Counted from the stretch's first letter, positions 7,199 to 8,179 are shown. The stretch is 18,440 bases of DNA from a virus (IMGVR_UViG_2671180755_000028); one strand, 5' to 3'. Program-made: numbers and translations. Notes: generated from the sequence alone by a model not told the origin.

Positions 7199-7229
7199 GG
7201 AAAAGAAAACCCGGCATGGAGGCCGGGTT
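7199..7229 (-). terminator. Candidate intrinsic terminator downstream of the 173-aa gene unit
   Basis: Stem CCCGGC / GCCGGG (7210-7215 and 7222-7227) with loop ATGGAG. The minus-strand RNA continues UUUUCUUUUCC. Confidence 0.5.
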
Positions 7230-7530
7230 GATGATTAGCGGTGTGGCCTTGAGCGATAATGCTCACACACATGTTCAAGATTTCCATGCCTTATCCGTTC
7301 ATAGGCATTCACATGAACTTCTCGATCGAATTGGTCATTCAAATTGTATGTAGACATCTGTGTTTTCTCATATTGGCGGCAGCCCTACAACCGCTTGAAA
7401 AAATGTACCAGACGCGCTAAGGTTACATCGCAAATATTGTGTACCTTAACAAGGGCTCCTTTTGGAGGCTCTGGTTAAACAGCATCAATGTCGGACTGGG
7501 GAGTTGGACATTGTGCTGAATGCTTTTGCA

Positions 7531-8052
7531 TTATTGAGGCCGAACGTAAACCTTCAGAATTGAAGAGATGCGTTCGGCTTCTTCGTTTGTGATATCGTTA
7601 GGAATGCCTTTAATCGTTACTGTAACCCCTGATTCAGGTCGAAGAACTACTGGAAGATCATAGGTATGAAGTGCATTAGCCTTGCCTTCGACTTTTGTTG
7701 GTTCGCCAGTCAAATCTTTTTCCTCACTGGATTCTTTGTCAATCGGAGTGTATGGGATTTCTTCACCAGACTGGAAAGCTACAAACTTTTTGATTGCACT
7801 TTCCATGCGGCTTTTATATGCAGTAATGCTGCTGTCGCTAGGCTTCGGCTCAGTTGCGTTGATGTATCGCTCGGCAAGCTCATTCACATCAAGCTGAGTA
7901 ACATCACCCATTTCCTCTTCTTGGACTACCGTTAAGAGGCGAGCGGATGAGTTTTTTAAATTTCGAGCGGTGGCCTCCTTCATTATGTTCAGCGACATAA
8001 GCTCTTCAAGGAAGTCCTTGAATGCCTGCACGCTAACGTTTGACTTTGCCAT
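7531..8052 (-). CDS. Hypothetical acidic protein, 173 aa, in the slot where lambda carries rexAB (between cI and pL)
   Basis: ATG at 8050-8052 preceded by a purine-rich Shine-Dalgarno run (GAGAGAGAG). No domain is recognisable by eye. Protein begins MAKSNVSVQAFKDFLEELMSLNIMKEATARNLKNSSARLLTVVQEEEMGD. It has its own candidate promoter and is flanked by terminators. Confidence 0.65.
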   Translation of the reverse strand: MAKSNVSVQAFKDFLEELMSLNIMKEATARNLKNSSARLLTVVQEEEMGDVTQLDVNELAERYINATEPKPSDSSITAYKSRMESAIKKFVAFQSGEEIPYTPIDKESSEEKDLTGEPTKVEGKANALHTYDLPVVLRPESGVTVTIKGIPNDITNEEAERISSILKVYVRPQ

Positions 8053-8084
8053 TTGCTCTCTCTCTAAGTTATTGACTCAGATCG

Positions 8085-8126
8085 AGTTTATCCAGGAATT
8101 GATTTGCATGCAAGACTCAAGTCTTG
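8085..8126 (-). promoter_or_regulatory. Candidate promoter for the 173-aa gene with an adjacent 16-bp perfect palindrome
   Basis: Minus strand: -35 TTGCAT (plus 8108-8113), a 17-nt spacer, -10 TAAACT (plus 8085-8090). The palindrome CAAGAC-TCAA-GTCTTG at 8111-8126 overlaps the -35. Confidence 0.4.
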
Positions 8127-8154
8127 AGAATTTCCGTTCAAGATCCACTCTCAA

Positions 8155-8179
8155 TAAAAAAGGCCGCACCTCTGCGACC
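8155..8179 (-). terminator. Strand-specific intrinsic terminator ending the cI transcript
   Basis: The minus-strand RNA folds as GGUCGCA-GAGG-UGCGGCC (7 bp with one G-U pair) followed by UUUUUUAUUGAG. On the plus strand the same pairing has a C-A mismatch, so it should work in one direction only. Confidence 0.5.

Follow-up and report, generated by a model that had tools for sequence, protein, structure and literature searches.

A predicted mobile two-gene cassette with a structured intercistronic spacer in the immunity region of Shiga toxin phages

We examined an 18,440-nucleotide (nt) stretch of viral DNA, IMGVR_UViG_2671180755_000028 (hereafter the window), and focused on positions 7,199–8,179, where an earlier note, made from the sequence alone, had placed a self-contained single-gene insert in the slot that lambda uses for rexA and rexB. 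Our comparisons indicate that the interval holds a two-gene operon that is autonomous and moves horizontally (a moron), in which the gene for a 173-amino-acid (aa) protein, ECs1184, is followed by a structured spacer and by a 40-codon gene, H0092. The idea of a single-gene insert therefore has to be abandoned, as the spacer and H0092 also lie inside the unit and fill what the note had called an unexplained 300-bp gap. The proposal of an autonomous unit in the rexAB slot survived: the interval has promoter elements and two terminators, homology to other phages is confined between the latter, and it is exchanged horizontally as a block. As to function, we tentatively favor the view that ECs1184 restrains a harmful small payload protein, the two forming a repressor–killer, addiction-type or abortive-type module.

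Judged by its sequence, the window represents the immunity region of a VT2-Sakai/Nil2-type Shiga toxin (Stx) phage. Its interval 6900–8600 is 100% identical to phages Nil2 and VT2-Sakai, the Stx2 phages 1717 and 2851, the PA phages, and the Morioka Stx1 and Stx2-II phages; in Escherichia coli O157:H7 Sakai, the matching interval belongs to prophage Sp5. The predicted 173-codon open reading frame (ORF) was found as described, flanked by cI and N. The cassette is present in ~4% of complete E. coli genomes (220/5426), and in O157:H7 it is carried both by the Stx2 phage Sp5 and by the Stx1 phage.

Both terminators that had been claimed for the interval were recovered. The upstream one, reported at 8155–8179 and located by us at 8156–8179, consists of GGTCGCA-GAGG-TGCGGCC and a U-tract, folds at −16.9 kcal/mol, and is kept in four genera (E. 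coli, Salmonella, Proteus, and Serratia), although a simple terminator scan overlooked it; it is predicted to shield the cassette against read-through from cI and pRM. The downstream one (stem 7208–7229 plus U-tract) folds at −14.3 kcal/mol and was already annotated in GenBank AP000422. When identity to the Salmonella and Yersinia copies was followed along the sequence, it rose at ~8183 and collapsed at ~7220, which places the recombination borders of the cassette at the two predicted terminators. The interval thus combines a terminator and conserved candidate promoter elements of its own with homology breakpoints at its borders, and it also occurs in different phages and neighborhoods: in the cI–N slot beside unrelated repressors in five genera, and at other sites. 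In every Proteus, Salmonella, Serratia, and Yersinia prophage that we inspected, the gene is on the cI strand, flanked by a cI-type repressor on one side and by N on the other, with unrelated repressor and replication genes nearby. IMG/VR contributed 55 further loci, some of which place the cassette in the nin region, behind O-like and DnaC-like genes (the L054 group), or in other contexts (L049–L053). P0039 is incomplete, as it ends at a contig end. The cassette is not tied to the rex slot, and the weight of any argument from the slot is reduced because copies reside in the nin region and elsewhere. Base composition was considered as a mark of foreign origin and set aside, since the composition of the cassette is not deviant (GC 0.445 vs 0.464).

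H0092 encodes a His- and Cys-rich protein, MSTYNLNDQFDREVHVNAYERIRHGNLEHVCEHYRSRPHR. It is annotated in Makino's VT2-Sakai record (AP000422) and, as gp51, in phage Oslo, and is missing from the current Sakai annotation. It is a real coding gene under purifying selection: between the window and Yersinia, its 26-codon core carries 12 synonymous and 3 non-synonymous changes, mostly at third positions. The AlphaFold model of the protein was unusable, with a predicted local distance difference test score (pLDDT) of 56.

In each of the 38 phage and prophage loci analyzed, whose large proteins are 33–100% identical, a small ORF begins 149–174 nt past the large-gene stop, and an intrinsic terminator follows it after ~5–20 nt. 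Three types of small ORF can be told apart, between which no similarity was detectable. Type A (phrog_21154) resembles H0092. Type B, 47 aa long, is zinc-ribbon-like, carries CxxC...CGC, and has weak matches to treble-clef zinc fingers (L010, L041, and L049–L053). Type C is a basic protein of 57 aa (phrog_33859; RAKAGTPDSERKILDAHxYGYKCWSFPVR; L002 and L054–L075). Types B and C always occupy the H0092 position, and gene callers seldom annotate them. Type C has accumulated 802 synonymous against 178 non-synonymous changes, and its protein remains 70–89% identical where the large protein is only 38–44% identical. An identical C-terminal 46-aa segment and a near-identical N-domain of the large protein occur together with types A, B, and C.

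The spacer between the two genes of the window is a structured RNA, with a minimum free energy of −54.4 kcal/mol (z −3.55) that none of 200 shuffled sequences equaled. A consensus of five sequences contains 44 pairs, 6 of them compensatory. In one predicted helix, the conserved UUUUUUCA pairs with the Shine–Dalgarno region of the small gene, UGAGAAAA, and in the single-sequence fold of the window spacer the AUG start codon is paired as well. For the type C spacers, RNAalifold returned 37 pairs, with 93% of cells paired and compensatory changes in 14 pairs; none of 500 shuffles reached 14 compensatory pairs, and slid controls gave 3–6. R1, a covariance model derived from type C spacers, failed to detect the window spacer, and we therefore regard the two variants as analogous but not demonstrably homologous. 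Rfam had no match over 7358–7530, either at the gathering threshold or at E ≤ 1, and none for the type C spacer. A known small RNA (sRNA) in the gap was likewise rejected, as AgvB and AsxR are located downstream of PR′, the Pas sRNAs are found near lysis and structural genes, and Rfam gave no match.

Two further features of the spacer region deserve mention. The loop of the first spacer hairpin (7486–7513) is inverted between lineages: it reads AACTCCCCAGT in the window and in Yersinia, and the exact reverse complement, ACTGGGGAGTT, in Salmonella; among type C spacers (L057 vs L060), TTGGCG alternates with CGCCAA. Such recurrent inversion of a hairpin loop supports the stem. Within the last codons of the large gene lies a 21-nt imperfect inverted repeat (7536–7581, minus strand), in which GAAGCCGAACG pairs with CGUUCGGCCUC, joining the EAER and VRPQ codons; GTTCGGCCTCA shows no DNA-level variation across six genera. 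This repeat may extend the RNA structure of the spacer into the coding region.

ECs1184 is acidic (pI 4.85), as the earlier note had stated. Its close homologs, with 52–83% identity, occur in Cronobacter, Salmonella, Yersinia, Serratia, Proteus, Providencia, and Morganella, and an exhaustive profile search gathered 648 clusters (at 50% identity), all of full length (160–200 aa), the distant ones being mostly environmental. The family alignment comprises a conserved N-domain, a hypervariable linker that is acidic in the window and basic in distant members, and a conserved C-domain of ~45 aa; the most conserved motif is TARNLKNS. AlphaFold predicted four helices in residues 8–94 (pLDDT ~90), a disordered linker (102–128), and a beta-beta-alpha unit (130–165; pLDDT ~66). 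The four-helix region has the features of the N-terminal core-binding (SAM-like) domain of tyrosine recombinases, and weak, sub-threshold matches to the Phage_int_SAM profile were found in both the query and distant members. We consider a recombinase core-binding-like fold probable for residues 8–94, and only probable because Foldseek searches of BFVD and the Protein Data Bank (PDB) produced no significant match for this protein. Pfam returned sub-threshold SAM-like matches only, NCBIfam and PADLOC returned none, and single-sequence and profile searches of the PDB sequences were equally without a match. The statement that no domain is recognizable holds for the sequence libraries but not for the fold. 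The catalytic domain of tyrosine recombinases (R-K-H-R-H/W-Y) is absent: the protein ends at residue 173, after the linker there is only the 45-aa beta-beta-alpha unit, and no Phage_integrase match was obtained. Because this domain is missing, ECs1184 is not a recombinase. A 126-aa truncated form in EC4115-type strains was considered as a lesion and dismissed; it is apparently an alternative start call, as almost all O157 copies are 100% identical in DNA sequence.

Distant family members offer a partly different picture. On three long environmental contigs (four loci), the large gene stands alone, with no small ORF downstream, and a terminator-like hairpin lies directly 3′ of the gene in two of these contigs. 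Toxin–antitoxin genes, including PIN, Gp49/HigB-like, HI1420, and HicAB, are abundant on two of these three contigs, which carry three of the four loci. Among the distant members L015 (6001–7436), L016, and L017, one is located 12 nt upstream of a Gp49/HigB-like toxin and an HI1420 antitoxin, near VapBC-like and HicB genes. This toxin–antitoxin pair may represent another payload carried by the same platform.

Upstream of the large gene, the elements of the claimed promoter, TTGCAT and TAAACT separated by 17 nt, are present, and the candidate promoter would start transcription near 8078. A −10 of the form TAAACT, TAGACT, or TAGAAT is found ~35–45 nt before the ATG in every clade. The inverted repeat CAAGACT-tg-AGTCTTG does overlap the −35, as had been noticed, covering part of it; it is not, however, a perfect 16-bp palindrome, but two 7-bp arms (8111–8117 and 8120–8126) that flank a non-palindromic 2-bp TG/CA center. 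A shorter perfect palindrome of 10 bp, TTGCATGCAA at 8104–8113, overlaps it. Since 7-bp inverted repeats are common by chance (nine in 1.1 kb), the significance of this one must come from conservation across loci. Alignment of the upstream regions revealed four conserved elements, namely the terminator, an invariant AGTCTTG arm with the −35, the −10, and the 5′ untranslated region (GATCTG..CAATAACTTAGAGAGA). Each clade of large proteins has its own −35 repeat (an AAGACT/AGTCTT type, a TCATCGATCGATGA type, and an AATCAA-n6-TTGATT type), and the repeat sequence tracks the large-protein clade, not the small-ORF type. This is what would be predicted from the sequences if ECs1184 were an autoregulator.

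GATC (Dam) sites recur in the cassette promoters of all clades. In the window they occupy 8080–8083 and 8142–8145, an invariant one lying just past the −10; the L054 group has 2–4 GATC within palindromes, and L073 and L074 have GATC beside the −10. Expression of the cassette could possibly be sensitive to methylation.

A phenotype for the large gene has been published. Mondal et al. (2016) made in-frame deletions of Sp5 genes in MG1655 and could not obtain a deletion of ORF23 (ECs1184), which is one of just two non-deletable genes in the Sp5 early region; they judged its loss lethal and proposed a role in the maintenance of lysogeny (PMC5155283). Non-deletability points to a repressor, an antitoxin, or a maintenance factor. 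In a 2025 TRAPP study, ECs1184 appeared in the RNA-associated proteome at a false discovery rate (FDR) of 0.065, with a polynucleotide kinase (PNK) crosslink signal at the level of the negative control (PMC7618764). Its recovery by TRAPP mass spectrometry means that the protein is made in lysogens. The literature searched contained no phage-challenge or promoter data for the cassette.

Natural insertions bear on the same question. IS629/IS1203 elements, with 3-bp target duplications, have inserted at 8080–8082 in O157 strain 180-PT54 and at 8177–8179 in strain 06-3462 (loci L079 and L080), the second site being just upstream of the upstream terminator. The insertion at 8080–8082 lies between the −10 and the ATG and leaves both genes intact; a natural O157 lysogen therefore tolerates having the two genes parted from their native promoter. 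This fits with harm arising from loss of the large gene alone and is a poor match for ECs1184 as a requirement for lysogeny. The insertion sites are recurrent, and the elements may alter cassette expression in outbreak lineages.

Taken together, these observations lead us to the following scheme, which we advance tentatively. ECs1184 would be a regulator made of a stand-alone core-binding-type nucleic-acid-binding domain and a small oligomerization-type C-domain. It would keep expression of the operon low, acting on the repeat that overlaps the −35, on the spacer RNA predicted to hide the ribosome-binding site of the small gene, or on both. The small protein would be an interchangeable payload that is harmful when overproduced, such that loss of ECs1184 would lead to death of the lysogen. 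The module would thus be a repressor–killer pair and not a classic toxin–antitoxin system with protein neutralization; we favor control of expression, by promoter or spacer RNA, over protein pairing because near-identical large proteins accompany three unrelated payload types. A broader version, which we hold to be doubtful, is that the cassette is a platform on which a core-binding protein and an RNA leader of ~150–175 nt gate interchangeable small zinc-finger-like killers of three unrelated types. It would then represent a new class of addiction or abortive-infection system, widespread among temperate phages of Enterobacterales, including the main Stx2a phage of O157:H7, and the leader would be a new family of cis-regulatory RNAs.

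Several points weigh against the restraint of a harmful payload by ECs1184. The toxicity of H0092, the binding of ECs1184 to the repeat or spacer, and the firing of the promoter are all predictions, and the small proteins match no known toxin family in Pfam, NCBIfam, annotated PHROG, or PADLOC. The TARNLKNS motif is invariant and does not change with the operator type, and an acidic N-domain such as this one (pI 4.9) is uncommon among DNA binders. Distant chromosomal members of the family are without any small ORF. The tracking of large-protein clade by the operator could be explained by linkage alone, as the promoter adjoins the large gene. It is also possible that the failure to delete ECs1184 stems from a cis effect or a technical cause, and the insertion sequence in 180-PT54 might supply an outward promoter.

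Among other explanations, a lysogen-expressed anti-phage or exclusion function, in which ECs1184 senses infection and either it or the small protein aborts or blocks the incoming phage, strikes us as unlikely. The position matches that of lambda rexAB, the unit has its own predicted promoter and terminators and moves like a moron, ECs1184 is made in lysogens, the payload gene is swappable as defense effectors often are, and distant relatives sit in toxin–antitoxin-rich islands. PADLOC, however, matched neither the large protein nor its distant relatives nor the small proteins of any of the three types; exclusion genes that a lysogen can spare, such as rexAB, can normally be deleted, and ECs1184 could not; and copies in the nin region and elsewhere weaken the argument from the slot. 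A defense role, which was inferred from position, is thus neither supported nor excluded, and it would be compatible with restraint of a payload by ECs1184 if that payload were an abortive effector. The explanation proposed by the authors of the deletion study, that ECs1184 keeps Sp5 repressed by curbing an inducer or anti-repressor or by supporting CI, with induction and cell death upon its loss (PMC5155283), has a somewhat lower probability in our estimate. It accounts for the unobtainable deletion, the gene adjoins cI on the same strand, and the modeled fold would be common to the integrase-like phage repressors MrpR and SroF. Nevertheless, proteins more than 70% identical accompany many different CI/Cro/CII sets and, in other phages, lie far from the switch; a conserved terminator insulates ECs1184 from cI; a natural O157 lysogen tolerates the insertion that parts the gene from its promoter; and the obligatory small ORF and the structured spacer are left unaccounted for.

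A host-directed regulator (lysogenic conversion) or RNA-binding protein, with non-deletability as a technical or cis artifact and the small ORF as an unrelated passenger, appears improbable. The borderline enrichment of ECs1184 in the RNA-associated proteome (FDR 0.065; PMC7618764), the invariant TARNLKNS, and the conserved spacer motifs would agree with it, but the PNK crosslink signal did not exceed the negative control (PMC7618764), and the strict linkage to the small ORF and terminator (38/38) argues against a passenger. We give the least credence to a classic type II toxin–antitoxin system, in which ECs1184 would bind DNA through its N-terminus and neutralize a small toxin by contact through its C-terminus. 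The regulator-first gene order, the palindrome over the promoter, the non-deletable first gene, and the relatives in toxin–antitoxin islands all resemble such systems. Yet the genes are separated by a structured spacer of 149–174 nt where overlapping or abutting genes are usual; the partners do not co-vary, near-identical large proteins being combined with three unrelated small ones; and neither gene belongs to a Pfam, NCBIfam, PHROG-annotated, or PADLOC family. Both lysogeny maintenance and type II pairing are less likely than restraint of a harmful payload by ECs1184.

The cassette can be compared with several known systems. The moron concept goes back to Juhala, Hendrix et al. (2000), as cited in PMC4104026. 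Like the lambdoid morons, the cassette is an extra transcription unit with its own predicted promoter and terminator, placed between conserved phage genes, independent of the lytic operons, and moving as a block. Unlike them, it is bicistronic with a conserved structured spacer, its second gene is itself swappable, and its base composition is not deviant. With lambda rexA–rexB it shares the slot, the cI strand, a terminator before pL, and a product made in lysogens; it differs from them in lacking any sequence or fold relation, in being insulated from cI by a terminator, in its own candidate promoter, in the non-deletable large gene, and in occurring outside the slot. Neither Pfam nor PADLOC revealed homology to RexA, RexB, or catalogued defense genes for any component or distant relative. 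The cI-to-N slot is also occupied by stk in 933W and by bstA in Salmonella BTP1.

Prophage repressor–killer pairs include DicA–DicB (Qin) and RacR–YdaS/YdaT (Rac), whose regulators are helix-turn-helix proteins with divergent promoters. The cassette resembles them in that a prophage regulator cannot be removed, in those cases because it silences a small or lethal neighbor. ECs1184 differs in its probable core-binding-like fold, in being co-transcribed upstream of the payload, and in the RNA spacer between the two; the toxicity of the payload is presumed. YdaT is mentioned in PMC9986795. Type II toxin–antitoxin systems share with the cassette the two genes, the regulator in first place, a promoter palindrome, an essential first gene, and mobility, but have neither its long structured intercistronic RNA nor its lack of partner co-variation, and the cassette belongs to no known toxin or antitoxin family. 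The re-use of a tyrosine-recombinase DNA-binding fold in a phage regulator without a role in recombination, which the model of ECs1184 suggests, has parallels in MrpR of SPbeta and SroF of phi3T (PMC10516654; bioRxiv 10.1101/2025.11.27.690993).

The coordinates of the cassette and its neighbors are collected in Table 1. A decayed DUF3024 gene, detected by tblastn matches in two frames, accounts for the sequence between cI and the upstream terminator. Compared with the intact copy in E. coli 95NR1, where it stands beside an identical ECs1184, the window copy has lost one nucleotide near 8513 and another near 8371 and contains a premature stop; O157 strain 150 has an additional deletion of ~140 nt within this interval. 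The intact copy matches PF11225 (E = 2e-31), and an intact copy also occurs in Proteus prophages. The order cI–DUF3024–cassette may be an older arrangement. On the other side, the first gene after N is ECs1180 (Sp5 ORF21; 83 aa; 6220–6471, minus strand), which is without a Pfam match and is the sole other Sp5 early gene reported as non-deletable (PMC5155283). Elsewhere in the window and unrelated to the cassette, Rfam gave gathering-level matches to the lambda cIII thermoregulator (5551–5609), isrK (14440–14516), C4 antisense RNA (14542–14625), and sRNA-Xcc1 (15405–15488).

Table 1 Positions of the cassette features and flanking genes in the window
Feature	Position	Strand	Remarks
N	6530–6874		N_peptide match
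pL and three OL operators	~6992–7067		From GenBank records
Downstream intrinsic terminator	7199–7229	−	Right cassette border; ~130 nt before the OL operators and pL
Small gene H0092, 40 aa	7235–7357	−	phrog_21154; annotated in AP000422 and phage Oslo
Structured intercistronic spacer, 173 nt	7358–7530	−	Predicted fold and consensus pairs
Large gene, 173 aa	7531–8052	−	ECs1184; Sp5 ORF23; VT2-Sakai orf22/H0093; Stx1-phage ORF b63; phrog_2602
Candidate sigma-70 promoter	8085–8113	−	−35 TTGCAT 8108–8113; 17-nt spacer; −10 TAAACT 8085–8090
Operator-like inverted repeat	8111–8126		CAAGACT-tg-AGTCTTG; overlaps −35; unique in the window
Upstream intrinsic terminator	8156–8183	−	Left cassette border; stem 8162–8179; U-tract 8156–8161
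Decayed DUF3024 gene	8209–8527	−	Outside the cassette, between cI and the upstream terminator
cI	8554–9207		HTH_3 and Peptidase_S24 matches

The genes of the cassette were already known as hypothetical genes, one of them with a published phenotype. The architecture of two genes plus RNA, the core-binding-like fold, and the swapping of payloads were not found described in the literature searched. The non-deletability of ECs1184, a seven-year-old puzzle, is now directly testable through the overlooked 40-codon H0092, and the case illustrates that conserved small genes can hide in the gaps of phage immunity regions. If our proposal is true, the cassette would stabilize toxin-carrying prophages in their hosts, and a regulator fold, a structured RNA, and three families of small effectors, all of them new, would be added to the repertoire of toxin–antitoxin and defense systems.

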